From a plasmid: a DNA stretch of 64,000 nucleotides. Under the pieces are notes generated by a model that worked only from the letters and a program-made list of their open reading frames with translations, did no database searches and was not told where the DNA came from. The stretch lies in NCBI RefSeq assembly GCF_988243305.1, contig NZ_OZ547137.1; one strand, written 5' to 3'. The position numbers were made by a program, and so were the translations under genes. Of the stretch, positions 3,712-26,624 are shown piece by piece (the stretch's first letter is position 1; every line of letters begins with the position of its first letter).

Positions 3712-3837
3712 GTTAAACTCCGGTTATTATTTACATGAGAATATTCATGTCTGTAATATTCGCGTTTGTGTGATATTAATCAGATCAACCTCATTATTTT
3801 GTATGGTTTTTATTACCGTTTTATATGACTTAGCCTG

Positions 3838-4176: not shown

Positions 4177-4191
4177 AAATCAAATCCGCGA

Positions 4192-4935
4192 TTAAAATTT
4201 TGGTTTAAAATCTTCAGAAACGTTCAGGAATTGTTTTGCCAGGTCGTCCTGCGAAATAAAGCCGTATGATAACGGGCGAACACTGCCCTGTTTCGGGTCA
4301 ACCAGCATCATGGCCGGGTAATATTTCACGCCGAGGCGCTGCGCCTGCCCCTGGTCAGTCCGGGAATCCGGCAACAGCGGATTAATCACGCCATCCACGG
4401 AAACGGGAATAACACTCAGACCATACGTATCCCGGAAGCCATTAATGACCTGCGCCAGCTGCCCGTCGATGGGGGCCTGCCCCCGGTAAAAAAACATGAT
4501 GCCGTAGTGTTCAGCCAGTTTCGCAATGGCCTGTCGCTGCTGCGCCTGGTCTGCCGCCAGCTGGTTCCGTACCGTGCCGTTGTAATGGCTGTACTGCAGG
4601 TTATAGTCCAGTTCGGGATGTGCCAGCATGGCCTTTTTAGCACTCATGGTGAAAAGCCCGGCCTGCTGAGTCCAGTAATTCTGCAGCCGGAAATATTTCA
4701 CAAAATTATCCACGCCGGGATACAGAATGGCTTCGTACAGCGCCCGCTTTGTTGCCGTCTGCAGCGCGGCCAGTTTCTGCATAATATCCGGCTCCTGACG
4801 GGGGGCTGCAGGTACAGGTTTATTTTCTTTTTCCTTTGGACTTATTTTCTCGTTATACCACTGCCAGCCTGCATCTTTCCCTGACGCCGGAAAAATAAAG
4901 CAGCAGAGTAACAGTGGCAGTAATGCTTTATTCAT
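4192..4935 (-). CDS. traF: TraF, periplasmic thioredoxin-like pilus assembly protein
   Basis: ORF 4192-4965; likely start at MNKALLPLLLCCF (4935); signal peptide; recalled F TraF similarity. Confidence 0.85.
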   Translation of the reverse strand: MNKALLPLLLCCFIFPASGKDAGWQWYNEKISPKEKENKPVPAAPRQEPDIMQKLAALQTATKRALYEAILYPGVDNFVKYFRLQNYWTQQAGLFTMSAKKAMLAHPELDYNLQYSHYNGTVRNQLAADQAQQRQAIAKLAEHYGIMFFYRGQAPIDGQLAQVINGFRDTYGLSVIPVSVDGVINPLLPDSRTDQGQAQRLGVKYYPAMMLVDPKQGSVRPLSYGFISQDDLAKQFLNVSEDFKPKF

Positions 4936-5188
4936 CTTCATTCCTTTCATCATTTTTTCTTTCATCAGCTTTCTGCAGGCCAGTCAGGGCAGAAAAACAA
5001 AAATACAGAATAAACAGGAGCACACCGGAGTAAAGGATAACGAAAGCAGCGGCAAGCATCCCGTCTGCCGTGGTTTCTTTTACCGTATCCCACGACCAGA
5101 TAATTACCGGAGAAATGACAATCGCTGTAATCAAAAGCCGGATAAGAAAATCAACAAGACGATTAGAAGTGAATATGACTTTCATCAT
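4928..5188 (-). CDS. trbE: TrbE small membrane protein
   Basis: 86-aa hydrophobic ORF between traN and traF. Confidence 0.6.
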   Translation of the reverse strand: MMKVIFTSNRLVDFLIRLLITAIVISPVIIWSWDTVKETTADGMLAAAFVILYSGVLLFILYFCFSALTGLQKADERKNDERNEDE

Positions 5189-5211
5189 TTCCCCCGGTTA
5201 TTTTCCATTTC

Positions 5212-7062: not shown

Positions 7063-7709
7063 TTTCCGGAATCTCCTTTCCCTGCCAGTAAATCATGAGC
7101 CACCTGCCGGCAGTTACCCGTGGCGGCCACTTTCTCCAGCGCCTGGCCGACCCGCAGATTTCCCCGGATGATGTCGTATCCCTGACAGCAGAACACCACC
7201 AGTGCCGGTACGCTGCGAATGCCGTACTGTGAAAACAGCGTCGGGTCGATCTGAACACCATCAGTTGCGCCGTCTTTCACCAGGGACAACACGGCGTCAG
7301 CCGTGGCCTTCAGGTCGTTGTTCACCATGCCCCGCAGCGTGGCCGGAATACCGTAATGCCGGGTTTCGCCCAGCATCCGTTTCAGCCCCTCTTCGGGAAT
7401 GGAGAAGGACACAAAGTACACGGCGCCCTGCTGTGGTTTATCCTTCTGAGCAGCCTGCTGTTTACGGACCAGTTCATCGAGAAACTGGTTATCGGAATGC
7501 TGAAGGGGATTCGCCCTGACCTGCTGCTCTGCCCATGCCTGCAACTGTATGTCCGGCTTTTCACGTAACTGCTGACTCAGTGTTTCCTGCTGCTTCAGGA
7601 ACTGGCGGTTTTCAGTTGTGTTCACATTTTCTGAAGCATGAACAGCAAGATGCATCCCTGCTGTCAGAGCAAAAAGTGCAAATATTTTCCGGTTCATGAT
7701 ATTTCTCAC
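7059..7709 (-). CDS. trbC: TrbC, periplasmic pilus assembly protein
   Basis: 216-aa ORF with signal peptide; overlaps traN start. Confidence 0.8.
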   Translation of the reverse strand: MRNIMNRKIFALFALTAGMHLAVHASENVNTTENRQFLKQQETLSQQLREKPDIQLQAWAEQQVRANPLQHSDNQFLDELVRKQQAAQKDKPQQGAVYFVSFSIPEEGLKRMLGETRHYGIPATLRGMVNNDLKATADAVLSLVKDGATDGVQIDPTLFSQYGIRSVPALVVFCCQGYDIIRGNLRVGQALEKVAATGNCRQVAHDLLAGKGDSGK

Positions 7710-8017
7710 TTTCTGCTATTTACAGGCATGAACTCATCAGAAAAAAGATAATTGAGAAAAACAGCCATAAACACACATGTAAATGTCACCTTCAGATATA
7801 ATCTGACAAGTGTCACTTGTTCTGATATATCTGCCTTCTTCCATTCATGAATAATTTCAGCGAGAAAACTGTCAGGTGCAAAATAAAATAATATAACGGG
7901 CACCATTACAAGACCAAAAGGAAATAAATTTAATGTTCTGCTTATCAGCCTGAGCAGCACAGCACCTATTTTCCTGAGGTGCTGAATATATTTACTGTCC
8001 ATTGTTGCCATTTTCAT
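7706..8017 (-). CDS. Hypothetical small membrane protein between traU and trbC
   Basis: 103-aa ORF, translationally coupled to trbC, hydrophobic segments; no family recognised. Confidence 0.35.
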   Translation of the reverse strand: MKMATMDSKYIQHLRKIGAVLLRLISRTLNLFPFGLVMVPVILFYFAPDSFLAEIIHEWKKADISEQVTLVRLYLKVTFTCVFMAVFLNYLFSDEFMPVNSRK

Positions 8018-8040
8018 TTCCTCTTATTCATTAAAATGAT

Positions 8041-9033
8041 TTACAGGAATACACAGTTACGTTTACGCCACATCAGGTAGCCGAAGTTTTTCTTTGTGTT
8101 GGGCGGATTTTTTCCCGTCTCCCAGCGCATCACACTGCGCCCGAACGGATGGCACTGTCCGCTGTCCGGATACATATTCACCATCTGATAACGCCAGCGT
8201 TCTTTGGGCAGGATTGGGGACGGATATTCATTACAGACGGCGTTATTTTTCCCGATGGTTTCCATAATCATGCCCTGACGGTGCAGCTTGAATGCCATGC
8301 GTTCACTGACCAGCAGGGAGGACTGCAACGGACTGGACTCATTACTCACCCAGCCATTGAACGGGTACATACTGCCCTGCGAACCGGCACACCAGAACAG
8401 AACATCGAGAGGCATATTAAAGGCACTGGCAATGGCATCTGCTGCGCAGGCCCCCTGTGCTATCGGATTGGCAAAAATGACGGCTTCCGGGTTGAGAATG
8501 GTGGTAAGGCTGCTGTCCGTCCAGGTGGGGTCGATTTCAGAAAGATAAGCGATATCCAGGTCACCACCTTCCAGACAGCCCAGCGATGTGATGATGTTCA
8601 GCCAGTACGTCAGCGGGTATTTGTACCAGTGAACGTGATAGAACGCCCCGTTCACCTGCTTCTCATCCTTTTTCGCCGTTCCCTGTGCCGTTTTACCAAA
8701 AGCCGGCAGGCTGAAGCCCAGGTTCACCATGCATCCCGGTGACCGGGTGACGTCCGTCAGCGCCATCGGCTCCCAGTAACCAATGGCCAGCCCGATACGC
8801 CTGAACAGCGGCGGCGGTGCCGGACAAATCTGAATAGGCATCGACGGGTTCGCCGTGTCGGGGACCTTACCCTGACTGACTTTGATACTGCCCAGCGAGA
8901 GCGGGAAAATACAGCTCCAGCAGATATCCGTGATCGGGTTTACAAAACGCCCCTCACAGGCAGAATCCGCAGACGCTGCAGGGACATGACCGGCGAGAAG
9001 GAATAACATCAGCAGCCACAGTCTTCGCTTCAT
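8041..9033 (-). CDS. traU: TraU, pilus assembly / DNA transfer protein
   Basis: 330-aa ORF with signal peptide; recalled TraU similarity and synteny. Confidence 0.9.
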   Translation of the reverse strand: MKRRLWLLMLFLLAGHVPAASADSACEGRFVNPITDICWSCIFPLSLGSIKVSQGKVPDTANPSMPIQICPAPPPLFRRIGLAIGYWEPMALTDVTRSPGCMVNLGFSLPAFGKTAQGTAKKDEKQVNGAFYHVHWYKYPLTYWLNIITSLGCLEGGDLDIAYLSEIDPTWTDSSLTTILNPEAVIFANPIAQGACAADAIASAFNMPLDVLFWCAGSQGSMYPFNGWVSNESSPLQSSLLVSERMAFKLHRQGMIMETIGKNNAVCNEYPSPILPKERWRYQMVNMYPDSGQCHPFGRSVMRWETGKNPPNTKKNFGYLMWRKRNCVFL

Positions 9034-9776
9034 TTTCTGCCCTCCTCTGCCGGAATAAATTCCACCTTCAGGAAGCGATCGCCGGGAACGGCGCTCACCC
9101 GTGCCGGGACCTGATCAATGCCGAGGCGCTGGCAGAGCACACCGTTCTGGTCAAAGTAAACACGGCTGTCCAGAGACTTCTGCATCTCCGGGATACTGCC
9201 CTGCACGAGGATAATTTTGCTCTCCAGTGTGGGCGGCGTCTGGCGTTTCATCCAGGCCACCTGCGCCGGATCATCGCCATTGATGAAATACAGCGTCTGG
9301 TTAAAAGGAACATACTGCAGCGGATTCATCACTTCACCCTGACGGGCAAACACCCGCCCTTCGTTATCCCGGATATCCGCAGCCAGTCTGACGGACGGGT
9401 CAAACAACCGGCTGCCGTATTTCTCTGTGCGTCCGATACCGGGCACGGCAGGGGGCCGCAGACTGTTACGGATCACCCGCTCCTTAAAGGCATCCATTTT
9501 CCGGCCCATCTCACCGGACTGCTCCAGTGCCGTCAGGCGCTGCATGATCACCGTCAGCATGTCCGGCTCCTTTACCGGCCACAGATCGCCCCAGGTGCCA
9601 AGATCGGCGGCGGCCACACTCTGCCCCCATATCAGCAGGGCAATCAGCCCCCGGCATCTCATGGTTCCGCCCTCATTCGCCGGGCAATATCCTGCTGGAT
9701 TTCCCGGGTGATATCCGGTGCCCCCTGTACCACGGCAGGCGACACCAGAATGACCGCGTGGTGTTTCTGCTGCCAT
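9030..9776 (-). CDS. traW: TraW, pilus assembly protein (start probably internal, near 9662)
   Basis: ORF overlaps trbI; signal-peptide-like MRCRGLIALLIWGQSVAA; synteny. Confidence 0.8.
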   Translation of the reverse strand: MAAETPRGHSGVACRGTGGTGYHPGNPAGYCPANEGGTMRCRGLIALLIWGQSVAAADLGTWGDLWPVKEPDMLTVIMQRLTALEQSGEMGRKMDAFKERVIRNSLRPPAVPGIGRTEKYGSRLFDPSVRLAADIRDNEGRVFARQGEVMNPLQYVPFNQTLYFINGDDPAQVAWMKRQTPPTLESKIILVQGSIPEMQKSLDSRVYFDQNGVLCQRLGIDQVPARVSAVPGDRFLKVEFIPAEEGRK

Positions 9777-10045
9777 GCCTGCAGGCTGGCTTCCAGTGCC
9801 GTGTTAAAACGCGCTGAAAGGGCTTTTGACTGTGCTTCTGACAGTTGTTTCTGACTGGCGCTGTCAAAAAACGCATCCACGGTCTGTTTCATGTTGAAGG
9901 CGGCAGTCACCGGTGCGTTCAGTCTGACAATGCCATAACTGATGGCTGCGTTCAGTAACACCATTGCCAGGCATCCCGGCACGGTCCACCACCAGTGGCT
10001 GCGTCGGGGGGCTGTAACGTCAGTCGTTTTTTGCGTTGTGGTCAT
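9659..10045 (-). CDS. trbI: TrbI, inner-membrane pilus retraction protein
   Basis: 128-aa ORF with N-terminal TM, between traC and traW. Confidence 0.7.
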   Translation of the reverse strand: MTTTQKTTDVTAPRRSHWWWTVPGCLAMVLLNAAISYGIVRLNAPVTAAFNMKQTVDAFFDSASQKQLSEAQSKALSARFNTALEASLQAWQQKHHAVILVSPAVVQGAPDITREIQQDIARRMRAEP

Positions 10046-12669
10046 GCAACACTCCTGTATTTCTCATGTTCTTCCAGCCAGGCCTCCAGCGAAGCCATCT
10101 CCGGCCCCGATTTCTTCCACGCCAGCTGCCACACCGCCTCATGAATACTCATACCCTCTCTGCGTTTCTGCTGCACAAACTCAAAATCCGGGCCGTCAGA
10201 GCTGTACATGGCACGGCTTAAGGGGTCCACAAACAGACGGTGCCAGGAGGAATGGTTTTCCACCTGCAGCAGGAAGGAACTGAACCACTGGTCTTTGGCC
10301 GCACCAAACTTACCAATCATGTCGCGCTGCAGTGGCTGGAACTGATCCGGGAATAACTGGTTATATTTCGCGAACTCCTTCGCACTCTGTTTGAGGATAA
10401 TTTTGTAGGAGGAGTTACCCCATGCCGCACGGGCTGCGCTGGATGCCTTGTCAGAGTCAAAGTCGACGATGTTCTGTGTGATGGTGATATAGGCACCGGT
10501 ATGACGGCGACAGGTGCGGTAACCTTTTTGAATAAACTCACCAACTTTACGATTTTTGAAGTCCAGCAGACGCCAGCCTTCATCAATGACGTTCAGTTTC
10601 TTGAGGGTACGCGGCGTGCGGTACATCCGGTTCTCGATGTAAATGATAAGGCTGAACATCACCGCAACCAGCAGTGACGGACGGTCTTCCAGTCCGCCCA
10701 GCTCCAGCACCACCATTTTTGCGTCATCCCGCAGGGACGGCTCATCAGAGTTAAAATACCGGCCGTAAGTGCCGTTGGCAGTGTACTGGTCAAGCAGCAC
10801 AATCATTTCGTCCAGACGGCTGCGGATGGTCGGTGACTCGACATACTGGTCGTTATCACGGGCGTTTTTCAGGAAATCCACCACATCATCAATGCGCGCC
10901 TGCTTCTTTTTAGCCAGCCAGGAGGCTCTGACCGCCTGCAGCAACAGACCTTCATGCACTTCATCCAGGTTACCGTTGGGGCTGGCCATCACCGACAACT
11001 GGTCACGGACACGCTCCGCTGACTGGTCAATATCAGTGATGTTCGCAAACGGGTTAAAGCGCAGGGTTTCACCGTCCAGATATACGCCCCCCATGTTCTC
11101 ACACAAAGACTTGTAGCCATCCCCCATGTCGAACACCACGGCAAAGCCCCCGGAGTCCAGCACGCTGCGGATAAGTGGCTGTATCAACCCGGTTTTACCG
11201 GCCCCGGATGTTCCACAGACCGCCATGTTGTAGTTGGTGTTATTCATCCCCTTAAAGAAGATATCGATAAACGCCAGCTGGTTACGGTAGGTGGGTGCCA
11301 GCAGGCCTGCCGGTGTCAGGGGGTTATCCGCCACTAACGGCATCAGGTTGGCCACATTAAAGCTCTCTGCTCGCTGAACCACACCGGCCTCTTTCAGCTG
11401 TTTAAACAGCCCTTTCCCGGCCATAAAGGGCAGGCAGGTCAGGAAATTGCGCATGTGGTTAAAGCGCGGTGAAATCAGCTCAAAACCGTTTTTACGAAAG
11501 CTGTTCAGAATGTCCTGCTCCACTTCCAGCGCCGTTTCATTGTTGTCCTTGCAGAATGCTGTGATGTTAAGGAAGTAGGACACGACAGAAGACTGACCGG
11601 AGCCCAGCCGCTGGCGCAGTTCCCCCCACTCCTTAGCTTCTTTCTCCACGGACGGAAACCATTTGGCATAGGAGGTCTTCGACTTTTTCTCCAGGTCCAT
11701 GTACTTCAGGTTGGCTTCACTGTGGGTTTTCACCTGATCTTCCACCACCAGTGTCAGCGTCAGGATGAACGGGCAGGAAATGGACATTTCCGGGTTCAGC
11801 AGATTGCTGTAGTTATCGGCCATGTTCCACAGGAAGGCGATTTCCGGGTTACGGGCCAGATGGAAATTCAGGATACGGGCTGTGCTGTTCCTGCCGTTCT
11901 CACGCAGCCCCAGCGTCAGGTAATCCGCCCGGACCTTCAGATCAAAACTGTCCTCCACACACTGATAATTCAGATCAGAATACGGGTCCAACTGACGTCT
12001 TTTCGGGTACAGAGAGTCCGGATTATGGTTAATCATCTCCCCGACAATCTCGATGAAAGCCTGTGCATCCACTGTCTGTGTGGTGATTTTTGCGCCGTGA
12101 AAAGAGGCACGGATGATTTTCACCAGATTTTCCATTTCCAGAATGTCGGCCCGGCTTTTTTTCTTCGAGGGAGAACAGTACGAGATAAACACCCGGTAAT
12201 GGCGCAGGGTCAGGGGCAGATTCATCCCCTCCGGCAGCGGGAACTGTGTCGCTGCCGCTTTCATATAATAGGCACGGGTAATGGCGTTAAACCGTTCAGC
12301 CTGTTCACCTGACCAGGAGAACTCACGCAGCCCGTATTCAATCCTGTCACCAACCAGCTGACTGGACATCAGATGGATACACAACGGAATACCGCGCGGC
12401 AGTTTGGTGCGCAGCATATGATCGAGCGCCTCCACAATGGACTCATTCGCACCATTGATGGGAATGGCTTCCAGCATAAAGCCCATCGTGGTGTCATTCA
12501 TGAACAGGCCGGACTCCTGGTTGTAATCACGGTACGGCAGCAGACGGCTGAACTGCGGGAAGCTCATTTCGCCCAGAACTTCATTGGCCTTTGCGGATTC
12601 GTCAGGCAGTTTCAGTGCTGTGACGAGGGAGTTAACCGCCTGAGTGACGGCCTCAAGTGGGTTATTCAC
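10042..12669 (-). CDS. traC: TraC, VirB4-family type IV secretion ATPase
   Basis: 875-aa ORF with Walker A (GTSGAGKTG); synteny. Confidence 0.92.
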   Translation of the reverse strand: MNNPLEAVTQAVNSLVTALKLPDESAKANEVLGEMSFPQFSRLLPYRDYNQESGLFMNDTTMGFMLEAIPINGANESIVEALDHMLRTKLPRGIPLCIHLMSSQLVGDRIEYGLREFSWSGEQAERFNAITRAYYMKAAATQFPLPEGMNLPLTLRHYRVFISYCSPSKKKSRADILEMENLVKIIRASFHGAKITTQTVDAQAFIEIVGEMINHNPDSLYPKRRQLDPYSDLNYQCVEDSFDLKVRADYLTLGLRENGRNSTARILNFHLARNPEIAFLWNMADNYSNLLNPEMSISCPFILTLTLVVEDQVKTHSEANLKYMDLEKKSKTSYAKWFPSVEKEAKEWGELRQRLGSGQSSVVSYFLNITAFCKDNNETALEVEQDILNSFRKNGFELISPRFNHMRNFLTCLPFMAGKGLFKQLKEAGVVQRAESFNVANLMPLVADNPLTPAGLLAPTYRNQLAFIDIFFKGMNNTNYNMAVCGTSGAGKTGLIQPLIRSVLDSGGFAVVFDMGDGYKSLCENMGGVYLDGETLRFNPFANITDIDQSAERVRDQLSVMASPNGNLDEVHEGLLLQAVRASWLAKKKQARIDDVVDFLKNARDNDQYVESPTIRSRLDEMIVLLDQYTANGTYGRYFNSDEPSLRDDAKMVVLELGGLEDRPSLLVAVMFSLIIYIENRMYRTPRTLKKLNVIDEGWRLLDFKNRKVGEFIQKGYRTCRRHTGAYITITQNIVDFDSDKASSAARAAWGNSSYKIILKQSAKEFAKYNQLFPDQFQPLQRDMIGKFGAAKDQWFSSFLLQVENHSSWHRLFVDPLSRAMYSSDGPDFEFVQQKRREGMSIHEAVWQLAWKKSGPEMASLEAWLEEHEKYRSVA

Positions 12670-12828
12670 ATGAATTCCTTAGTTGAAAAATAAAGCGAGA
12701 AATGCGGTAGCCATGAAGGGAATACCTGTAATTAACGCGCCATTTCCCGGCGCATATACAAAGATTTCGGTTTTCTGAATATCAACTCATGTTCATCCGG
12801 AATTAAATCAATATGTTCTGCGACTGAC

Positions 12829-13050
12829 TTATGCATAATGTTTTCTCTGCTTTTCCTGATACGCCTGACATTCAACGCACAACGTCACACCGGGAAATAT
12901 TTTCCGCCGGGCTTCCGGAATAGGATTTCCGCATGCTTCACAGAGATAAACAGGAATACCATGAACATTTATTTTCTGGCGTATCCGGTTTATTCCTGTC
13001 ATGGTCAGTTGTTCTGTCACTGAATATGCTTCATCGGCTTCATCACTCAC
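12829..13050 (-). CDS. traR: TraR, DksA/TraR-family C4 zinc-finger protein
   Basis: 73-aa ORF with CxxC...CxxC (CEACGNPIPEARRKIFPGVTLCVECQ). Confidence 0.8.
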   Translation of the reverse strand: MSDEADEAYSVTEQLTMTGINRIRQKINVHGIPVYLCEACGNPIPEARRKIFPGVTLCVECQAYQEKQRKHYA

Positions 13051-13184
13051 GGAATATTCCTCCCGACATGTTCTGACACGCTACCGCCCATCCCTTTTCA
13101 CGCACAGGGCACTCGTTTTACAGGCAGATTTTGAATACAGAAAGCCCGCCGGCATTGCCGGCTGATATACAACTTCAGGGCCAG

Positions 13185-13700
13185 TTAATTAATACGTGGT
13201 TTTCCCCACGCAGACGGTTTAATAACAAAAAACACACTGGATGGCTGATGATAAACATCCTGATTATCAATATAAGGCGCTATCCATAATGCAGCCGTCT
13301 GCTCACCCGTTCTTAGCGGGCGGGGAGGTGTTACCGGCGCAACTGAACTGACCGGAACAATCGTTTTCACTTCCCGGGCAGCCGTAAACAACGGACGTGG
13401 TGCCAGCAGTTTCTGCTCCGGAAGTGCCGTCACCGCAGGTCTGCTGCCGGACGGAGTGGTCGCGGTGACGGTCTGCACCGGCATTGTCCGGAAGTTCCCT
13501 TCAGCCAGGCGCGGCAGTGATGCCGCAACCGGCTTTGCTTCTGAGGACTGCTCCAGTTTTTTGGCCTTCTCATTGGCCTGCTCCATCGTCATACAGGTAT
13601 CGGATGTGGTGGCGTTACACTCAAATTCCGTACTGGTTCCGGCACAGCCGGAAAGTAATAACGTCCCCAGCAGAGGAATAAATAAAGAAATCTGTTTCAT
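13185..13700 (-). CDS. traV: TraV, outer-membrane lipoprotein of the T4SS core
   Basis: 171-aa ORF with lipobox (LLSGCAG); synteny. Confidence 0.8.
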   Translation of the reverse strand: MKQISLFIPLLGTLLLSGCAGTSTEFECNATTSDTCMTMEQANEKAKKLEQSSEAKPVAASLPRLAEGNFRTMPVQTVTATTPSGSRPAVTALPEQKLLAPRPLFTAAREVKTIVPVSSVAPVTPPRPLRTGEQTAALWIAPYIDNQDVYHQPSSVFFVIKPSAWGKPRIN

Positions 13701-14050
13701 TACCCTTCTCCTTTTTTATTACTCTCCACAACAGCAGAAATTAACTCTACTGTCAGATTTGTTTTTCCTGCACAGGGTTGTCCGGAGACTACTGTATTTC
13801 CCGGAGAAGAAAACAAGCTCATCGACATACCCTTCTTCATCACTCCGACAGCTGCCATATTAAAATTGTGCGGCAATGATTCAGAACCGAATTCCTTCAG
13901 TGCAGGAAGTACGATTCTTGTGGTGCAGTTACTGAGAACAGCATTCATAAAATCATCTGATACGCTTTTATCCAGTACAGAGCGTGCAGTAATAATATTA
14001 ATATTACGCATGTTCATTTTTATCTCCGTTGTTTCTGTTTGCCCTGTCAT
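13700..14050 (-). CDS. TrbG/TrbD-region small ORF (start uncertain)
   Basis: 116-aa ORF between traP and traV; overlaps traP 3' end, so the real product is probably shorter. Confidence 0.3.
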   Translation of the reverse strand: MTGQTETTEIKMNMRNINIITARSVLDKSVSDDFMNAVLSNCTTRIVLPALKEFGSESLPHNFNMAAVGVMKKGMSMSLFSSPGNTVVSGQPCAGKTNLTVELISAVVESNKKGEG

Positions 14051-14591
14051 CAGGGAAATAAACAGGGCATTTCCTGATTTTTTCCGACAGAGAAGTATCT
14101 TCCGTATAAACTTCCTTCAGATGTTCATCTGCGGTTCCCACCCGGACACATTTCATTTTTCCGGGCCACATCGGATATTTCCCGGTGCCTGCCGCAAACG
14201 ACATATACATAAGTGCCAGCGTTGCCCAGAATGCGGTGACCAGTTGCATCAGTGACCGGTCAGTCTCCCTGACATAATCTGCAGCATCAGCCGCGCGGTA
14301 ATGGCAGATATCCTGTATTTCTGATCTGCCTGAAGAATCAGAGGAAGAAAACCAGCATTCACTGACCGGGAACTGTCCGGCAGGTGCTGTTTGTCTTACG
14401 AAGTTAATCTCCTTAACCAGTAATTTCCCCGGCGTGGTGTTGTCCTTCCATAAAACAAACAGAGCCATCAGGGCCATTGTTGCCAGCGGCCAGATAACCA
14501 CAAACCTGACGACCCACAGCAGCCAGCGAACGACAAACGCCACACGGAATGTCAGTGCATCACCCGCCATTTCCGCCCTCCTTGCCGGCAT
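14004..14591 (-). CDS. traP: TraP, inner-membrane protein
   Basis: 195-aa ORF with N-terminal TM segments immediately downstream of traB. Confidence 0.6.
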   Translation of the reverse strand: MPARRAEMAGDALTFRVAFVVRWLLWVVRFVVIWPLATMALMALFVLWKDNTTPGKLLVKEINFVRQTAPAGQFPVSECWFSSSDSSGRSEIQDICHYRAADAADYVRETDRSLMQLVTAFWATLALMYMSFAAGTGKYPMWPGKMKCVRVGTADEHLKEVYTEDTSLSEKIRKCPVYFPDDRANRNNGDKNEHA

Positions 14592-16011
14592 CCCCGCCCA
14601 GCGGGCTCTTGTCTCCGGACATAAACTGCTGCGGATTCAGATTGCCCAGCTGTTTCAGCATCTGGTCGGTGTTAAAACCGTTCAGGTGGCTTTCTGCCGA
14701 GGGAGGATTCGGCACAGGGCTTTCCGGGTTACCCTCTTCCGCTGTACTCTGTGACTGCTCCAGCGCCATTTCCTCCACGGTTTTCAGCTGGAAGCCGTCC
14801 TGGAACACCACGGTCACTTCATTGCCCGCACCAATCGGTATCACCGGGTGATACTGTTCGGCACGTTTGATGTAGTAGTCACTGAGCGTCTGTGCGGCTT
14901 TCGATGCGCCGCCACCGATACCCATTTTCAGGACATCACCAGCCCCGTAAGCGGCTGTGGCACCCAGCCCGACAGCCGGCTGGGAGGCGCGCTCCATTCC
15001 CTGACCGATACCGTCAACAAATCCCGCGCCCCATGCCCAGCCGAGGATTTTGCCGTTACGCATCACCACTTCGCCCTTGATACCGTTTTTACCCCGGAAG
15101 CTGACATGCCCCTTAATCGGCATATCAATGGTTTTGCCATTCTTCAGGCAGCTGATATTACGGGTGCGAACAATAGCACGTTCACTGGAGACATCCCCCC
15201 AGGCTTCCAGCCCCACAAAACATCCCGTTGCGTCATACGTCTTGCTGTTCGGCATTTCCACCAGACCGGTGATACGCAGCTGCATCGGCACCGTGGATTC
15301 ATTACCGGTGACTGAGGCATTGGCATCCGCCCCTTCAATCAGCATGGCTTTCGCAAAACTTCCTGACGGAATGTACGGCAGCGATGGTCCCTGTTTTCCC
15401 TCATTACGGGTAAACACCTTACGCTGTATCCGGTTAGGCACCGGCACAGACTGGTACGTCACCTGTGGTGGTGGCGTGACACCATTCCCGGGATAAAACG
15501 CCGTCGGCGGTGGAACAGCAACGCTGCCCTGCGGCGGGAAGGATACGGGGGTGTTTCCTGGCTGTGGTTCGCCTTCCGGCCCGGGCGGTGAGGCTGGCGT
15601 CTGCGGTACAGGCTCACCGGTCGCGGTGACGGGATTTGCACCCAGGGCTTTTACCTGCTCTGCCAGGGCAGCATTATCCTGTCCCAGCTTTTCAATACGA
15701 CGCTGGTCATCACCGCGCTGTTTGTTCAGGACATCCAGTTCACGACGGATTTCCTCATACTGCTTCTGCATCTGCGCTGCCGTCACCTGCATCTCTGTGG
15801 TGGCATGCTGACGCACCTTGTCATCAAAGGTCGTATCCACCACACCGGTCATATCCGGCACAGGCTCCTGTTCAGCCACCGCCTCACCGTTACCGGACAT
15901 GTCCACATCAGACAGATACAGTGCACCACCAATCGCGGAGGCTGCACCGACAACCACAATCCCCAGCCACAGGTACTGCTTGCGTTTCACAATGGTATTG
16001 ATACTGGCCAT
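14560..16011 (-). CDS. traB: TraB, VirB10-like T4SS core protein
   Basis: 483-aa ORF: N-terminal TM, Pro-rich linker (PVPQTPASPPGPEGEPQPG), coiled coil; synteny. Confidence 0.9.
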   Translation of the reverse strand: MASINTIVKRKQYLWLGIVVVGAASAIGGALYLSDVDMSGNGEAVAEQEPVPDMTGVVDTTFDDKVRQHATTEMQVTAAQMQKQYEEIRRELDVLNKQRGDDQRRIEKLGQDNAALAEQVKALGANPVTATGEPVPQTPASPPGPEGEPQPGNTPVSFPPQGSVAVPPPTAFYPGNGVTPPPQVTYQSVPVPNRIQRKVFTRNEGKQGPSLPYIPSGSFAKAMLIEGADANASVTGNESTVPMQLRITGLVEMPNSKTYDATGCFVGLEAWGDVSSERAIVRTRNISCLKNGKTIDMPIKGHVSFRGKNGIKGEVVMRNGKILGWAWGAGFVDGIGQGMERASQPAVGLGATAAYGAGDVLKMGIGGGASKAAQTLSDYYIKRAEQYHPVIPIGAGNEVTVVFQDGFQLKTVEEMALEQSQSTAEEGNPESPVPNPPSAESHLNGFNTDQMLKQLGNLNPQQFMSGDKSPLGGDAGKEGGNGG

Positions 16012-16739
16012 CAGTTGCCCTCCCCGTCACGGATGACATACACATCCATGCGCGCACCTGCCAGTAACTGGCTGGCAGGCTGGCTGAACATCACGGCACG
16101 GGTTCCCGGCTGCCAGAAATCACTTTCCCGGATATTCAGGGCAGACAGCGTTTTATTTTCCACGGCAAAGCGGACCATCTTCAGGTGATTCCCCGTCCAT
16201 ACGGCATCTGCCACTGAAGACAGCCCCGCCGGGGCCTGCAGGGTTTCCTTTGTCACAGGAACCTGATACCAGCCTGCAGGTAATTTTCCGCCACGGACAG
16301 CCTGGCTGATGGTCACAAGCAGGGATTCGTAAGGCGTGGACGTTTCCCACGCACCGGCTTCTTCTCCGGTTCCGCGCAGGTCACTGACCAACTGAATGGT
16401 ACGCCCCGCGCCTTCACGGGGAACGGCCTGAATGGAAAGATTCAGACCACGTTCTGTTTCCAGAATGAACGTAAAGGGCTTTTTGTTGACGGTGGCAACC
16501 ACCACACTGCCGGAGGCGGTCTGCTCATTATTGGTCAGGGCACCATCCAGACTGTTCACGGCGATAATCCGGTCACCGGGAACGGTAAACAGATTCGGGC
16601 TGGTATTGCTGATGGCAATACTGGCCTGACCACCGTTCACCATTGGCACCACGGTGGGGGACAGCGTACCGTTTGCGGCCATCACGCTGCAGGAAAAAAA
16701 CAGGCTGCCGAATATTATTGCCGTATTATTTTTTCTCAT
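16011..16739 (-). CDS. traK: TraK, VirB9/secretin-like T4SS core protein
   Basis: 242-aa ORF with signal peptide; synteny. Confidence 0.85.
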
Positions 16740-17292
16740 CGTCTGTTTCCCCGAAATTATCCAGCCAGGTCACCCCGTTTTCCCGCTTCAGAATAAGGAT
16801 GTAATGTTTGATATCAGTGAAAGGTTTTGAATCACCAATCCAGGTTTTAAGCACACCACGAATTTCCACACGACCATACTGAGGCCAGACACGGACACTG
16901 GTCTGGAAAAAAGCAGAATTCACGTTATCTTTTTTAATGAGTTTCGCTTCTTCAGCCAGAATAACTTTCATCTGGTTCTGTGCACCCGGGCGGATATATT
17001 GCAGAAGCGCCTGATGTGAGGCATCGACGATTTCCGGTGAGACATTCAGACGGAGGGCAATAAATGACAGCGCCATCTGCTGTAAATAAGAGGCGTCGGC
17101 ACTGTTCTGTGACACGGCAAAGGGCACATTAAATCCCATTGGGGTCACGGCAGTGCGTTGCTCATTCTGAAGACGGTAGTTATTTACCCCCTGAATGACG
17201 TTAACAGAGAGGCTGAGAACAATAAGCACTGACATAAATATAAAGGCGATGGCCATTACACGACTGGTACTTAAACGGGCACCGTGTTCCAT
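16726..17292 (-). CDS. traE: TraE, VirB5/8-like pilus assembly protein
   Basis: 188-aa ORF with N-terminal TM; synteny. Confidence 0.85.
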
Positions 17293-17313: not shown

Positions 17314-17625
17314 CTATTTAATCCACTGCCGGAAACACGAATCGGGAACATTATGAAAAATACCGCGCAGCAGGGCTGTTGGCATATACCAATAAATCAG
17401 GTCACGTAACCAGGAACTGCCCCGCCCTTTTTTCAGTTTTTTAATCCCGAAATAAACCAGAACCGCTGCACCAATACCGAACAGATATTTTGATGTTGTG
17501 ATACCCCAGCCAATACAGACTGCTGCGGGGATCAGTTCATCCAGTGGCAGGCCAAACCAGCGGCTCTGGTTGGTCAGTGTTTCCGGGAAACGATATTTCT
17601 TAAGTTTATTCTCGTCTCCCGACAT
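17314..17625 (-). CDS. traL: TraL, VirB3-like pilus assembly protein
   Basis: 103-aa membrane ORF upstream of traE. Confidence 0.8.
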
Positions 17626-17639
17626 CGTTTTATTTCCTG

Positions 17640-18005
17640 TCAGAGGCCAACGACGGCCATACCCACAGCAATAAATACAGAGATGATGGCAAAACCGGCC
17701 AGGAACTTGACGTTTTTGGTCATCATGTACATGACCGCACCGACCAGGACTTCAGCCAGAACAACCCATTTAACAACACTGGAGTCCTTACCGAAGGTCG
17801 CCTTAACCGTGGAGTTACCACTCTGCATCAGGTCCTGACCTGCCCCCTGGGCGGCCATTGCCAGTTGCGGGAAGAACATCATCAGAACAGCAGCAGGGAT
17901 CACAGCGCGAGCCAGGCGAAGCATATTCAGACGAGTGAATTTAGAAAAAAACGATTTCTTTTCAACGGGCGCAGAAGCACCCTGAACACTTAAAACAGTA
18001 TTCAT
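17640..18005 (-). CDS. traA: TraA, F-type propilin
   Basis: 121-aa ORF with long leader and hydrophobic mature region ([67 protein letters not shown]). Confidence 0.9.
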
Positions 18006-18037
18006 AAGTTACCTCAATTTCGGATAAATGAATAAAA

Positions 18038-18439
18038 CTAGAGTGTATTAAATGTTATATCTTCCTCTTTATCTGCCTCCCTGAATATCTCCGAGTTATA
18101 AAAATCAGGAAACTTGATCAAATGATCAATAACTCTGTCTGCAGCCTCATCTGTTTTACACCATCCACTACGATTTTTTGCTGCAATAAGTAGCTGGTTA
18201 GTTTCATCATCCAGACGCATTGTCAGATACTTAACCAGCGACTTACCATAGATATTCCCTGCCCTGTTAAACTTTGGATAGCGGTGAAGATGATCTTTAA
18301 GTCTTATTACTGCCTCAAACGATCGACTTCTTCCGCTTCTGTTACTTGCCTCAATTAATAGACTTTCCACATCTACAGGTAATTTTAGTTTTACCATCTT
18401 ACCTGTTGCAGAACGTGTACCAAATCTTTTCAATAACAC
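18038..18439 (-). CDS. traY: TraY, RHH oriT-binding relaxosome accessory protein
   Basis: 133-aa ORF at the head of the tra operon; position and size. Confidence 0.65.
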   Translation of the reverse strand: MLLKRFGTRSATGKMVKLKLPVDVESLLIEASNRSGRSRSFEAVIRLKDHLHRYPKFNRAGNIYGKSLVKYLTMRLDDETNQLLIAAKNRSGWCKTDEAADRVIDHLIKFPDFYNSEIFREADKEEDITFNTL

Positions 18440-18531
18440 CTCCCGCTGTTTATCTTCTGGTTACCACTTATGTTTGCAGAATAATCAGAAAAGGTAAATA
18501 GACGGAAAGTCCATATTTCATTAACACTTTA

Positions 18532-19281
18532 TTAACGCGTATTTATGATACACATAGCCTTCTCGTATAAATAATGAATAAACTTTTTATTGTAGAGTAA
18601 GATGATTAACTCATCTTTATTAGAAACAGAGAAGTAGTCGCATATCAGAGATGCGTGTTTCTTTGATGTGGAGATGGATATGTTTAATATTCTTGCTATA
18701 GCATTATGACTGATTCCGGTGCTATATAAGTAAAATACATCATTTACATATGATGATACAGAAGAATCATCACTCATTCTTCTGATTATATTTCTGATAT
18801 CATCACTGACAATCGTTTTTTGATTATAACTGTCTTTATGACGAACATGAGCAGCATCATAAAATTGCCACAGAATAATATTTCTGTGTCCATTAAGAAA
18901 TGACTGGACAGATATTGTCCAGAATCTGTTCTGAATAAAAACATCCTCTACAAGATTAAGATGCGTATGCTCATTCCTGTATGCTTCCATCTCTGTGACA
19001 GAGATCAATTCATAAAAATCTCTCTGCGACAGAAGCCATTTTTCAGCACTTTGATCTTGTGTAAGAAATGACTCATGAAACAGCGTATTGCAAAAAATAA
19101 ATTTTCCAGTTTCGTCCCTGATACAGGCTGGATTTGGATAATCCTGAATAACTGCCGTCAGATTTTCCAGCAGATCTATTTGACGAGCATGTTTTTGTTG
19201 AATACGATCCATCGGATACATAGGAACCTCCTCACAAAGGATTCTATGGACAGTCGATGCGGGGAGGAGAACTCCCTGCAT
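18532..19281 (-). CDS. traJ: TraJ, tra operon transcriptional activator
   Basis: Low-GC ORF between traM and traY; likely start at MYPMDRIQQK. Confidence 0.7.
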   Translation of the reverse strand: MQGVLLPASTVHRILCEEVPMYPMDRIQQKHARQIDLLENLTAVIQDYPNPACIRDETGKFIFCNTLFHESFLTQDQSAEKWLLSQRDFYELISVTEMEAYRNEHTHLNLVEDVFIQNRFWTISVQSFLNGHRNIILWQFYDAAHVRHKDSYNQKTIVSDDIRNIIRRMSDDSSVSSYVNDVFYLYSTGISHNAIARILNISISTSKKHASLICDYFSVSNKDELIILLYNKKFIHYLYEKAMCIINTR

Positions 19282-19405
19282 CGGCGATTTTCAAATTCAA
19301 ATTTTAACGTGGCATTAACCACGTAATTAATATACTAATTATCTTTCGTACTGTCACCTTTTTAAATCATAAAAACTCTGATATTTGAACGAAGTCAAAT
19401 TTCTT

Positions 19406-19789
19406 TTATTCATCATCATTTTTTGGAAAAAATCGTTCCATCTCAGATGATACCTTCTCCCTGATATCTTCAACCATATTGGCATATTCAAACTTTGGAT
19501 TTCCGGAGACATGAGGACTGAGAGACTCAATACCCAAAATTTTCGCTACTGATGATTGTGTTTTTACAACGCATTCAAGAAGCAATTTATTAAACTCAGT
19601 CTGATTAAATGCAGACTCTTTACGCTCCATCTGAGCCTCATATACACGAAGCCCCAGTTCAAGAAGCATTGAAGCTGTTGCTGAAAAACTGACATCTTTT
19701 TCCCTTGCCCCTTCCTGTCGACGCTTCTCAATAATCGAATTTATTTTTTCATAGGCATCATTGCTGATATACAGGTTCACCTTAGCCAT
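19406..19789 (-). CDS. traM: TraM, relaxosome accessory protein
   Basis: 127-aa ORF adjacent to oriT; MAKVNLYISNDAYEKINSIIEKRRQEGA N-terminus. Confidence 0.85.
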   Translation of the reverse strand: MAKVNLYISNDAYEKINSIIEKRRQEGAREKDVSFSATASMLLELGLRVYEAQMERKESAFNQTEFNKLLLECVVKTQSSVAKILGIESLSPHVSGNPKFEYANMVEDIREKVSSEMERFFPKNDDE

Positions 19790-19799
19790 TAGAGATTAC

Positions 19800-20150
19800 C
19801 TTTTTTGAACATAAAATAAAGTTAATTTCGGAACACTAAAATTCATAATACAAACAGGGACGCACCGCTAGCAGCGCCCCTAGCGGTATCCTATAAAAAA
19901 ACACACCGCGCCGCTAGCAGCGCCCCTAATATAAAATGATGTTTTTTATAAAAATAGTCAGTACCACCCCTACAAAGCGGTGTCGGCGCGTTGTTGTAGC
20001 CGCGCCGACACCGCTTTTTTAAATATCATAAAGAGAGTAAGAGAAACTAATTTTTCATAACACTCTATTTATAAAGAAAAATCAGCAAAAACTTGTTTTT
20101 GCGTAGTGTGTGGTGCTTTTGGTGGTGAGAACCACCAACCTGTTGAGCCT
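19800..20150. promoter_or_regulatory. oriT: oriT, F-type origin of transfer with nic motif and TraM/TraY/IHF-type repeats
   Basis: GTGTGT/GGTGCTTTTGGTGGTGAGAACCACCAACC at 20106-20140 matches the F nic region as recalled (nic about 20111^20112); two copies of GCTAGCAGCGCCCCTAG (19867, 19912); inverted repeat GGTGTCGGCGCG...CGCGCCGACACC (19977-20015). Confidence 0.75.
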
Positions 20151-20201
20151 TTTTGTGGAGTGGGTTAAATTATTTACGGATAAAGTCACCAGAGGTGGAA
20201 A

Positions 20202-20712
20202 AATGAAAAAATGGATGTTAGCCATCTGCCTGATGTTTATAAATGAGATCTGCCATGCCACTGATTGCTTTGATCTTGCAGGCCGGGATTACAAAATAGA
20301 TCCTGATTTACTGAGAGCAATATCATGGAAAGAATCCCGTTACCGGGTTAATGCCATCGGTATTAATCCGGTAACGGGATATGGCAGCGGACTGATGCAG
20401 GTAGATTCCCAGCATTTTAACGAACTGGCCCGCTATGGAATTAAGCCGGAACATCTGACAACAGATCCCTGCATGAACATTTATACCGGTGCTTATTATC
20501 TGGCAATAGCCTTTAAAAAATGGGGCGTCTCCTGGGAGGCCGTTGGTGCATACAATGCCGGATTCAGGAAGACCGAACGCCAGAACCAGAGACGTCTTGC
20601 CTACGCATCAGAGGTTTACCGGATTTATACCAGGATAAAAAGCAGTAAAGGTATCCGGATTCCGGTCACGAAGAAATCACTTCCAGAAATTAACAGCGTG
20701 CAGAACAATTAA
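20202..20712 (+). CDS. GeneX/orf169-type lytic transglycosylase
   Basis: 170-aa ORF from [12 protein letters not shown] with signal peptide; first gene after oriT as in F. Confidence 0.8.
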
Positions 20713-20959
20713 TCTTACAGACATTGTCAGATACCGGTTATGCCGCAAAAGCGGCATGAAGGCTACACACAAAAATATCATATGAGTGACAATGCTGACT
20801 GGCCGAAGCCCCGCGAAGCGGGAACCCATCTTATATATACCCGGTAACTGCGCAGCCTCCTGCCAGACCATTTTTCGCGGGCACAATATTTACAGACAAC
20901 CGGAAAGCCGGTTGATGGAATTGAGGTATATCAGACGACACAGCGATGCCGAAGAATGA

Positions 20960-21003
20960 TAATATAAGTAAAGCCCCGAAAAATTTTCGGGGCTTTACTT
21001 ATA
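20960..21003. terminator. Bidirectional intrinsic terminator (long perfect palindrome)
   Basis: AATGATAATATAAGTAAAGCCCCGAAAA / TTTTCGGGGCTTTACTTATATTATCAT between convergent genes. Confidence 0.5.
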
Positions 21004-21006
21004 TTA

Positions 21007-21909
21007 TCATGACTTCCACTTTCTGAACTGTTCGGCAATCACCCATAACGCCTTGTTGATTCTTATATCACCATCAATACCTGTAATGGCTCTTGTCCTG
21101 GTATTTTTCCCGGAGGCACTTCGCCCCGATAATCCACCTTTTATCATATTCTCCTGAACCCGCTGCCAGGTTGTCCAGAGATCGTTCTGTTTATCTTCCC
21201 GACGACGGGGAGTAATTATTTGTTCAGGCGTCACTGGCGTTTTATTTTCATCTTCATACCTGACCATCAGTGCAGCTCTGCCAAATAAATGTTGCTCGTC
21301 ACTGTTAAGATGAATTTCTTTCATCGCCTCCATATTATCAGTGACCTTATCAAAGACACCGAGCACTTCATACGCTCCCTCGATAACCTGCCCGACAATA
21401 TCACCTTTATGTGGAACACGGATTTCGCCAAAATTATTTCCGCACACCAGGCCATTTGTGCAGACAAAACGAAAAATTCCGGGGATCATCTGATAACTGG
21501 ATGAACCATCATGTGAATTAAGCAGGATAATTTCAGGAACTTCCTGCCCGTTAATATGCCCTTCCCTGCGAAGGCGTAACATATGTTTACTGTATTCGCG
21601 GCGTCCCAAATCACGAACCCGACTCTGACAGGCAAAGAATGGCTGGAAACCTTCATCACGTAACTTATTGATGATATTGATTGTTGGAATATACGTATAA
21701 CGTTCACTCCGGGACTCATGTTTATCACCGGAAAATACCGAAGGCACGAACTGCATTAATTCATCATCCGTTAAAGGACGTTCACGACGGATGGAATTAT
21801 ACCGACCAAAACGGGAAGCTAATCGCATAACAGCTACTCCTTTATGAAAGGATAAATTTAATAAAAAATTTTTCCGCTTAATATCATCCCTCCCGATCTC
21901 CATTAACAA
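21007..21909 (-). CDS. Conserved leading-region protein of unknown function (about 300 aa)
   Basis: 300-aa ORF downstream (minus sense) of the first Frpo-like repeat; family not confidently recognised. Confidence 0.5.
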   Translation of the reverse strand: MLMEIGRDDIKRKNFLLNLSFHKGVAVMRLASRFGRYNSIRRERPLTDDELMQFVPSVFSGDKHESRSERYTYIPTINIINKLRDEGFQPFFACQSRVRDLGRREYSKHMLRLRREGHINGQEVPEIILLNSHDGSSSYQMIPGIFRFVCTNGLVCGNNFGEIRVPHKGDIVGQVIEGAYEVLGVFDKVTDNMEAMKEIHLNSDEQHLFGRAALMVRYEDENKTPVTPEQIITPRRREDKQNDLWTTWQRVQENMIKGGLSGRSASGKNTRTRAITGIDGDIRINKALWVIAEQFRKWKS

Positions 21910-23016: not shown

Positions 23017-23175
23017 CTACTTACCGGATTCGTAAGCCATGAAAGCCGCCACCTCCCTGTGTCCGTCTCTGTAACGAATCTCGCACAGCGATTTTCGTGT
23101 CAGATAAGTGAATATCAACAGTGTGAGACACACGATCAACACACACCAGACAAGGGAACTTCGTGGTAGTTTCAT
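23017..23175 (-). CDS. hok: Hok-family toxin (52 aa) of a hok/sok type I TA system
   Basis: Minus-strand translation gives [52 protein letters not shown]; below the 60-aa track cut-off. Confidence 0.85.
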
Positions 23176-23233
23176 GGCCTTCTTCTCCTTGCGCAAAGCG
23201 CGGTAAGAGGCTATCCTGATGTGGACTAGACAT
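23021..23233 (-). CDS. mok: Mok, overlapping reading frame controlling hok translation
   Basis: 70-aa ORF overlapping hok in another frame and starting upstream. Confidence 0.55.
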
Positions 23234-23250
23234 AGGGATGCCTCGTGGTG
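23176..23250 (+). ncRNA. sok: Predicted Sok antisense RNA region
   Basis: Antisense to the mok start / hok leader; placed by analogy, boundaries approximate. Confidence 0.3.
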
Positions 23251-23454
23251 GTTAATGAAAATTAACTTACTACGGGGCTATCTTCTTTCTGCCACACAAC
23301 ACGGTAACAAACCACCTTCACGTCATGAGGCAGAAAGCCTCAAGCGCCGGGCACATCATAGCCCATATACCTGCACGCTGACCACACTCACTTTTCCTGA
23401 AAATAACCCGCTCATTCAGGCTGTTTACGGGTAATCTGTGTGATTGTTGCCGCA

Positions 23455-24659: not shown

Positions 24660-26624
24660 TCAGGCGGCATCAGCCAGGTTATCGGTGCGTTCAGTGGCAT
24701 CTGTCTGTGGATGTGGTGCACACATCCAGCCTGGAACCCAGCGGTTGTCTTTCATATTGTGCTCTGCATGTTCAGCCGCATCACCTTTCTTCATCTTCTC
24801 CGCGTCCCGTGCGGCACCGGACAGCCCTGCCTCATTCAGGGCTGCGATAATCTGCGGCTTTTTCAGGTGTCCGAAGAAGTTTGCTTTTGTCGGCTGCCAC
24901 CAGTCACGCATGTGAAAGCCGATGGCGCTTTCCAGCGAGTCAAGCGGACTGCGTGACGTGTGACCACACTCGCGGGTCTGGACACCGTTAAGACTGCACG
25001 CGGTACAGAAGCTGAGCAGGGATAACAGCACCTCCTGGCTGAGTGACAGGAACGTCGTCATATCCCGTTCCCATCCTTCCGGCAGCAGGGCAGCAAAACG
25101 AGAGTGTTCTGCCATCAGCGCCATGAATGCGGCACCTTCCTTCCCCGACGGTGCATCGCTGGTCAGCGCATAATGCTCACATTCCAGGCGAATTCTGGCG
25201 GGACTACTATGCGCTTTGCTGCCAAACACATTCAGGCAGAGCGTCCATGCCAGCAGTGTCAGGGATTTGTCCGGTTGCTGCATCAGTGCCGCCTGGACTG
25301 CCAGCGTGCGTTCGGAAGACATTTTCGTCAGCAGTGGCAGACTGATTTCCTCCACTGACGCTTTTTCCTGCACCTGTTCCGTGCGGTCAGCGTCGTCAGC
25401 CGCATCATCCTCACTGCGTAACTGCACACCACGCTGGACACATACGTTTCCATAACGCCAGGACACCACCACTCCACCTCCGGCACGCATCTCCGGCGTC
25501 CACGCTCTGACCTTCGCCATGCAGCGCATCAGCTTCATTTCTGCTTCCAGCAGGTCAGATTCCTCACACTGGTTTTCCATCGCGTCGTAACGCGTCATCA
25601 GTTCGTTCAGGCGTTCTTCTTCCGCCTCCGTCAGCACCGCTTCCGGCTCCGGCAGACAGCGGTATGTTCCGGCATCCTCACGGCACTCACCGACTGGCTC
25701 CATGCGCCCGGCGCACCATTCCCAGCCTTCTGCTTCCCGAAGGTGTTCAGCAACAGCCTGGAGTTTTTCCAGCAGGGCGGCATCGAGCGCCACGCAGTCC
25801 ACATAGCCACCCTCGTCGTCGCTGAACAGGTCAGTGCGCAGTTCATCTGGCGAGAAGGCATCAGCCCCCACAAAGCGGAATTTACTGTTCCCCGCCACCG
25901 CCACTTCACTTTCGGTCACCAGACGACGAATGGTCTGCGCTTCCGGTTTACCGCCCCATCCCGACTGGCAGGCGGCTTCAAACACCTGCACCTGACGCGC
26001 GGTGTCGTTCTCCAGCGCCAGCGCCTGACAGTGTTCGGTGGTGATGCGGTCTTCTGCCAGCGCATCGAGGATGACAGGCGCAAGGTCAGCCAGTTTCAGC
26101 ATTCGCTGGACATGGCGGGGTGAATAGCCCAGCAAGTCACCGATTTGTGCAGGTGTTTTGCCTTCCTGCGCCATTGCGCGGAATCCGGCAATCTGTTCGG
26201 CAGGGTGCATATCCCGACGATGACCGTTTTCAGTCATTGATGCGGCAGTCGCCAGTTCCTGCGGGATGACCTTTACGCGGACAGGTCAGTCAGCCGGAAT
26301 GATGCCACGCTCTGCCAGCATGTTGAGTGCTGCCAGTCGGCGACCACCTGCGGCGACACCGTAACGGTCACCAGGCAGGGTATGCACGACCAGATTCTGC
26401 AACAGGCCAACGTCCTTAATGGACTCCGCCAGTTCGCTGACGGACTCTGCGGAATACGGCACCGTGCGCACATTCAGCGGTGATTTAATCAGTGAAGCCA
26501 GCGGCACACTCACTTCCTCCGTCTGCGCCAGCAGGGCAGACAGGACTGTTTCCTGCGTTTTTACAGATTTAAGGCTTGCTTTGCGGGTGGTTTCTGGTTC
26601 ACACTTCGTTACAGGCATAATCAT
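24660..26624 (-). pseudogene. ParB-like nuclease-domain protein interrupted by an in-frame TGA
   Basis: 112-aa (26286-26624) and 525-aa (24660-26237) ORFs are in the same frame, separated by one TGA at 26286-26288; N-terminus has a ParB-type motif (VAAGGRRLAAL). Confidence 0.6.

Follow-up and report, generated by a model that had tools for sequence, protein, structure and literature searches.

The window analysed here, a stretch of 64,000 nucleotides of plasmid DNA, contains an intergenic region at 19790-20202 that, according to its open reading frames and their profile matches, separates traM on the minus strand from the transglycosylase gene orf169 (gene X) on the plus strand. traM (19406-19789, minus strand) encodes a relaxosome DNA-binding protein (NCBIfam TraM equivalog, 233 bits), and orf169 (20203-20712, plus strand) an SLT lytic transglycosylase of 169 aa (Pfam SLT, 78 bits; also the annotations of relatives). 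To the left of traM, the genes traJ, traY, traA and traL all lie on the minus strand, with FinP and the traJ leader (5' UTR) at 19215-19324 (Rfam, above gathering score), so that the tra operon reads away from the intergenic region. To the right, orf169 opens the leading region and marks the right-hand limit of oriT; it is followed by DUF932, sok, psiA, psiB, a ParB-like gene and ssb, all on the minus strand. The layout around oriT is the same in relatives. The region occupies the usual place of oriT in plasmids of the F family (MOBF12 group A / IncF). The preliminary description had assigned the origin to 19800-20150, a span that covers its functional part but falls short of the full intergenic region, which extends from 19790 to the base before the orf169 ATG (20203). 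Its identification of the region as an F-family oriT was confirmed, the order being the start of traM (19789, minus strand), repeats, inverted repeat and nic.

The window begins inside traG, where Rfam places the antisense-to-traG RNA (AS-traG) at 84-169, and traI and traD lie beyond it. Within the window the tra region is uninterrupted from traM into traG. In p104-BR1220 (p104 of strain BR1220), a plasmid typed as conjugative in PLSDB, the tra region is complete and 99.4% identical to it; this plasmid is also the best match to window positions 1-25000 (99.4% over 25 kb).

Several features of the surrounding DNA were also noted. In the RefSeq annotation of near-identical plasmids, the SLT transglycosylase CDS runs for 603 nt from a GTG equivalent to window position 20110. 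This start would sit on nic, and the CDS would cross the helicase loading site. Translation from the ATG at 20203, which has GAGGTGG six bases before it, yields the classical SLT product of 169 aa; some records use this start. The ParB-like gene of the leading region is split into two minus-strand ORFs (24660-26237 and 26286-26624) with a stop between them, ParB_N lying upstream and HTH_ParB downstream; this could mean either a pseudogene or misjoined ORF calls. Rfam matches above gathering score comprise the sok antitoxin RNA at 23173-23349, STnc490 at 56893-57017 and an ALIL pseudoknot, an IS3-type frameshift signal, at 57916-58014. A group II intron occupies 37313-38997 on the minus strand, with Rfam D1-D4 domains at 38711-38997 and a reverse transcriptase/maturase ORF of 450 aa at 37313-38665. 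At 48232-48303 (minus strand) there is a further group II intron domain match, distinct from the first.

Putative TraM sites between traM and nic

Positions relative to nic are given below as +n, which stands for 20112 - n in window coordinates; as in the numbering of the F relaxosome (PMC12117103), counting starts at nic along the transferred strand, and values on the 5' side are positive. The preliminary description had reported two copies of GCTAGCAGCGCCCCTAG between traM and nic. Repeats are indeed present, but this sequence matches exactly only once, at 19867-19883; the second copy, GCTAGCAGCGCCCCTAA at 19913-19929, ends in TAA and agrees at 16 of 17 positions (one mismatch). None of 100 shuffled sequences contained comparable matches to GCTAGCAGCGCCCCTAG. 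The true repeat unit is 22 nt long, CGC(A/G)CCGCTAGCAGCGCCCCTA, and occurs at 19861-19882 and 19907-19928, 46 bp apart and with 21 of 22 bases identical. The repeats had also been described as protein-binding motifs, which is upheld: they and the long inverted repeat that follows them correspond to predicted TraM sites, sbmA, sbmB and sbmC.

The first repeat copy is contained in sbmA (19861-19890, CGCACCGCTAGCAGCGCCCCTAGCGGTATC), the putative high-affinity TraM site, the sequence of which is identical to that of F. Its palindromic outer motifs, ACCGCT (19864) and AGCGGT (19882), can be compared with the motif A(G/C)CG(G/C)T that is bound by F TraM, for which the roles of the individual sbm sites have been described (PMC3159463). 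sbmA adjoins -10-like hexamers upstream of traM and, judging from F, may take part in traM autoregulation. A promoter scan of the minus strand upstream of traM gave no sigma-70 match at its threshold, so the link between the traM promoters and sbmA/sbmB is drawn from the F literature only. The imperfect second repeat copy forms sbmB (19907-19929, CGCGCCGCTAGCAGCGCCCCTAA), the presumptive second TraM site, in which a G at 19922 (A in F) brings the sequence nearer to sbmA than is F's copy. Between sbmB and sbmC lies an AT-rich spacer (19930-19968) with a single difference from F, a G at 19938 (A in F). In the order of sites described for F, this is the place of the second IHF site, IHFb (PMC12117103), and by its position only the spacer may be assigned to IHFb.

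The third site, sbmC (19974-20017, +95 to +138), is the long inverted repeat that had been recognised between traM and nic. Its arms (19974-19990 and 20001-20017) are 17 nt each, 100% complementary and separated by a 10-nt spacer, and as single-stranded DNA the structure folds with -24.4 kcal/mol (z = -9 versus shuffles). Its outer motifs are AGCGGT (19976) and ACCGCT (20010), and it is a G at 19977 (A in F) that makes the inverted repeat perfect here. In F the TraM footprint spans +93 to +117, and sbmC extends up to +143 in the relaxosome (PMC12117103). By analogy with F, sbmC is probably the TraM site on which transfer depends most. When sbmA-sbmB was folded as single-stranded DNA, the structure was not significant (z = -1.35), suggesting that these repeats act as duplex binding sites and not as hairpins.

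Two of the five differences from F that lie outside nic, 19922 and 19977, fall in TraM sites, and both raise symmetry or repeat identity: the G at 19977 restores the AGCGGT motif in sbmC, and the G at 19922 makes sbmB match sbmA. The degenerate versions of sbmB and sbmC may be F's own.

The nic region and the predicted TraI, TraY and IHF sites

The sequence at 20106-20117, GTGTGTGGTGCT, spans the nick position 20111/20112 (a slash marks nic throughout), and the cut would be expected, by homology, between T20111 and G20112 of the plus strand. The 19-mer around it, GCGTAGTGTGTGGTGCTTT (20101-20119), occurs only once in the window. R100 has the identical 19-mer, and F agrees with it at 17 of 19 positions.

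In the F relaxosome, the TraI trans-esterase site extends from -2 to +9, with duplex contacts of the relaxase domain at +10 to +15, and IHF occupies +23 to +60 (IHFa), three TraY molecules +61 to +90, and the helicase form of TraI -1 to -27 (PMC12117103). We transferred the site boundaries from these structures to the window, where each protein would be predicted to bind at the equivalent place. The putative site of the TraI trans-esterase (relaxase) domain is 20103-20113 (plus strand, +9 to -2), with the sequence GTAGTGTGT/GG, and directly 5' of it is a short inverted repeat, GCAAAAAC-TT-GTTTTTGC (20085-20102, plus strand, +10 to +27). The predicted IHFa site (20052-20089, +23 to +60) and the TraY-binding region (sbyA/sbyC; 20022-20051, +61 to +90) are both 100% identical to F. 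IHF bound at IHFa makes a U-turn in F that brings the TraY arm beside the nic arm (PMC12117103). On the 3' side of nic, the candidate loading site of the helicase form (20112-20138, plus strand, -1 to -27) includes the inverted repeat TTGGTGGT / ACCACCAA (20119-20126 / 20131-20138) and is unchanged in F, in R100 and in almost all relatives.

In single-stranded form, nic falls in a 16-nt unpaired gap between the hairpins 20085-20102 and 20119-20138. The strand that would serve as relaxase substrate reads 5'-TTTGCGTAGTGTGT/GGTGCTTT through nic, and the TraI-binding core ...TTTGCGTNGNGTGT/GGTGCTTT is flanked by the two short inverted repeats. IHF, TraY and TraM sites, as recognised by sequence identity, all lie between nic and traM. 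Identity to F is unbroken from 19978 to 20104 (+134 to +8), which takes in the TraY region, IHFa and most of sbmC, and it is on this identity that the site assignments rest.

F-like and R100-like alleles in one origin

The region was aligned with the origins of F (NC_002483) and R100 (NC_002134). F is the prototype with a solved relaxosome structure (PMC12117103), and its oriT has the same place between traM and orf169, the same nic hairpins and 406 of 413 matching bases. The seven differences are at 19831, 19850, 19922, 19938, 19977, 20105 and 20107. Two of them lie in the relaxase site, which reads GTGGGGTGT/GG in F and GTAGTGTGT/GG in the window, that is, G to T at +5 (20107) and G to A at +7 (20105); these positions are 145' and 147' in the older (Frost) numbering (PMC2504302). 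Of the five others, 19922 and 19977 are those in the TraM sites, 19938 is beside sbmB, and 19831 and 19850 are upstream of traM. At both relaxase-site positions the window carries the R100 allele. The extended core is GCGTAGTGTGT/GGTGCTTT in the window and in R100, versus GCGTGGGGTGT/GGTGCTTT in F. Indeed, R100 (NR1) is identical to the window over 20081-20203, including the relaxase core and the helicase loading site, whereas its TraM/TraY/IHF binding region, the left ~290 bp (19790-20078), is highly diverged. The designation of the motif as F-type in the preliminary description is thus correct at the level of the family, but not at +5 and +7, where the G residues specific to F are replaced by T20107 and A20105, nor for TraI, which in the closest relatives is R100-type at residues 153, 193 and 201.

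When the window, F, R100 and seven other F-family origins were aligned, the nic block (20081-20203) proved nearly invariant among the ten diverse sequences, with just two forms at +5/+7, and the motif at 20106-20117 was conserved, as had been anticipated. Both nic forms occur with several types of accessory site, which fits recombination within the conserved block. R1 combines its own accessory sites with a nic sequence the same as that of F (PMC3245843), the opposite decoupling to that in the window. Among the chimeric oriTs of Fekete and Frost (2000), as cited in PMC12117103, one with F nic and R100 accessory sites is transferred by F proteins; the window represents the reciprocal combination, R100 nic with F accessory sites, in natural form. 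In R1, in the chimeras and in the window alike, the nic/TraI module combines independently of the TraM/TraY/IHF module.

The accessory proteins encoded in the window are of the F type. TraY is 100% identical to F TraY, in its long form with a tandem ribbon-helix-helix (RHH), whereas R100 TraY has 75 aa and a single RHH and is only 43% identical to that of the window. TraM has 98% identity to its F counterpart and carries the F allele, Lys3/Asn5, in the beta-ribbon; R100 TraM has Arg3/Ile5, residues that prevent binding to F sbmA (PMC3159463). Since the TraM and TraY sites are also F-type, accessory proteins and sites match each other.

The relaxase gene could be followed in related plasmids. 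The closest relatives of the window carry traI, and it is R100-type; over the relaxase domain their TraI is 98-99% identical to that of R100. One of them, pNORD58_1, has an oriT 100% identical to that of the window. We compared nic and TraI in nine plasmids, the lineages of which are not independent of one another. The R100-specific core GTAGTGTGT/GG, with A at +7 and T at +5 (AGT), was accompanied by TraI with D153/R193/Q201 in six of six plasmids (R100, p104, pNORD58_1, p666/H10407, CP023351 and CP024258), and the core with G at both positions (GGG) by TraI with E153/Q193/R201 in three of three (F, CP032262 and pPA45B). The F type of TraI was absent from relatives of the window with the same core. 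The substitutions E153D/Q193R/R201Q are the published swap from F to R100 specificity, and they abolish function on the F/R1 nic (PMC3245843). The pairing in relatives, together with this swap, leads us to expect an R100-type TraI for the window oriT, and the source plasmid's own TraI, to judge from its relatives, is probably of this type (D153/R193/Q201).

The frequency of this combination was estimated by exact-match queries of the 72,556 plasmid records in PLSDB. Records with the 42-nt nic block numbered 1,264 for AGT and 2,581 for GGG. A 60-nt query, which adds 18 nt of F-type flank, matched the window in 35 records, F in 942 and a GGG variant in 84. Within PLSDB, an R100 core joined to an F-type flank therefore accounts for about 3% (35 of about 1,120-1,210 plasmids with that flank). 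A 96-nt exact query (16 versus 298 records) left about 800 records unclassified because of nearby single-base variants and was replaced by the 60-nt and 42-nt queries. A sequencing artefact at the two nic bases was ruled out by the exact 60-mer being common to 35 independent records.

It could be argued that the two base differences are without effect, and that the origin is strictly F-specific, recognised and cut at nic by an F-type TraI. Apart from two bases of the trans-esterase-binding site, everything is F-like, and single substitutions at neighbouring positions, although they greatly weakened binding, reduced F transfer in vivo no more than 4- to 8-fold (PMC2504302). However, the two bases are exactly those that separate F from R100, and the core occurs with an R100-type TraI in all six plasmids examined that have it and in none of the three with an F-type TraI. 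Moreover, of about 1,120 plasmids with the F-type flank only 35 have this core, which speaks for a pairing of consequence. We consider strict F specificity improbable; the enzyme expected to cut this origin is an R100-type TraI (D153/R193/Q201), and F TraI would be expected to use it poorly.

A scan of informative sites showed F-like bases on both sides of nic, with 41 such sites in 20000-20099 and 7 in 20200-20299. The only R100-like bases were 20105 and 20107, within a stretch of no more than 144 bp that is invariant. They form an island in an F-like block of about 4.4 kb (17400-21800), and several other tra segments, as well as the relaxase of relatives, are nearer to R100. These results might be explained by a footprint of selection, whereby an F-type traA/traY/traJ/traM/oriT module recombined into an R100-like plasmid and the sole recombinants to survive were those with the two bases, kept or regained, that match the resident relaxase. 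We put this forward tentatively, as a conceivable history that we do not yet favour. If true, nature would have tested in this lineage how close the fit between relaxase and nic has to be, and R100-type TraI would work with an F-type architecture of TraY, IHF and TraM.

Within the F-like block, traA, traY, traJ, traM, oriT, orf169 and DUF932 (17400-21800) are 98-100% identical to F. The tra region is a mosaic: at 900-17000 several segments are much closer to R100, among them 14401-14700 (99% identical to R100 versus 74% to F) and 5401-6300.

Direction of transfer and related plasmids

With high confidence, we interpret 19790-20202 as the oriT of an F-like conjugative plasmid (MOBF12 group A, MPF-F) that has the F accessory alleles and the R100 relaxase core. 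Beyond the mixture of alleles it is ordinary and well known, a textbook F-family oriT of an F-like E. coli plasmid. If it works as the F origin does, IHF would bend the DNA at 20052-20089, three TraY molecules would bind at 20022-20051, and TraM tetramers would occupy sbmC (19974-20017) together with sbmA and sbmB (19861-19929), repressing traM from the latter two and joining the relaxosome to TraD. The trans-esterase domain of TraI would engage the plus strand at 20103-20113, cut between T20111 and G20112 and become linked to the 5' end at 20112, and a second TraI would load as helicase on 20112-20138. The plus strand is taken to be the transferred strand because the TraI-binding sequence reads on it. 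It would enter the recipient 5' to 3' from 20112 towards higher coordinates, the leading region first (orf169, DUF932, hok/sok, psiA, psiB, ssb) and the tra genes last. As psiA, psiB, ssb, DUF932 and sok lie on the minus strand, the transferred plus strand would be their template.

As the preliminary description had proposed, the region can serve as a reference point for the orientation of transfer. It is a reliable landmark, from which the transferred strand and the order of entry can be read, and it bounds the tra and the leading region of the window. The allele call also predicts which helpers should be able to mobilise the plasmid or its derivatives, namely those that supply an R100-type relaxase with F-type TraM and TraY. 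Since the specificity rests on two bases, typing a plasmid as F-like by overall similarity can mis-assign the specificity of its relaxase.

The combination of F accessory sites with an R100 nic is already known, having been published for pEntH10407 (p666) of the enterotoxigenic E. coli (ETEC) strain H10407 (NC_017722). In this plasmid traM-traR are F-like, traD-traX are R100-like, and the nicking-site region of oriT is identical to R100 (PMC2762410). Its oriT is 99.3% identical to that of the window, from which it has three small differences; the nic core is shared, and TraI of pEntH10407 is R100-type. The plasmid differs further in the loss of traC to traT through ISEc8 insertions. Self-transfer of pEntH10407 is traA-dependent and of low frequency, ~3e-9 (PMC2762410), and this loss accounts for the low value.

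Such relatives raise the question of whether the window, too, might hold an inactive or orphan oriT, one that has lost its relaxase or coupling protein and works in trans only, or never. The genes concerned, traD and traI, are outside the window; the oriT was kept despite a broken tra region in p504239_155 (IS3 after traL) and in pEntH10407 (without traC to traT), and small plasmids exist with an F-like oriT alone. Against this, tra runs uninterrupted from traM into traG at 99.4% identity to p104-BR1220, typed as conjugative in PLSDB, and all the predicted binding sites appear intact. We regard loss of function at this locus as very improbable, and retain the view that it is the origin of a conjugative plasmid.

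Two kinds of oriT relative may be described further. The ETEC plasmid p504239_155 (NZ_CP025861) has the same oriT haplotype and keeps traM-traL; an IS3-family element cuts tra after traL, and beyond this element is a longus type IV pilus cluster. Its oriT is an orphan that could be mobilised in trans only. A copy of window 19863-20120, from sbmA through nic, is present at 88-91% identity in small plasmids without tra genes, CP037878 (6.7 kb, Salmonella), OW970483 (4.7 kb) and CP073938 (3.2 kb), the similarity stopping just 3' of nic. The one that was fetched has the GGG core. Their appearance is that of hitchhikers with oriT only, which would travel by F-type conjugation systems.
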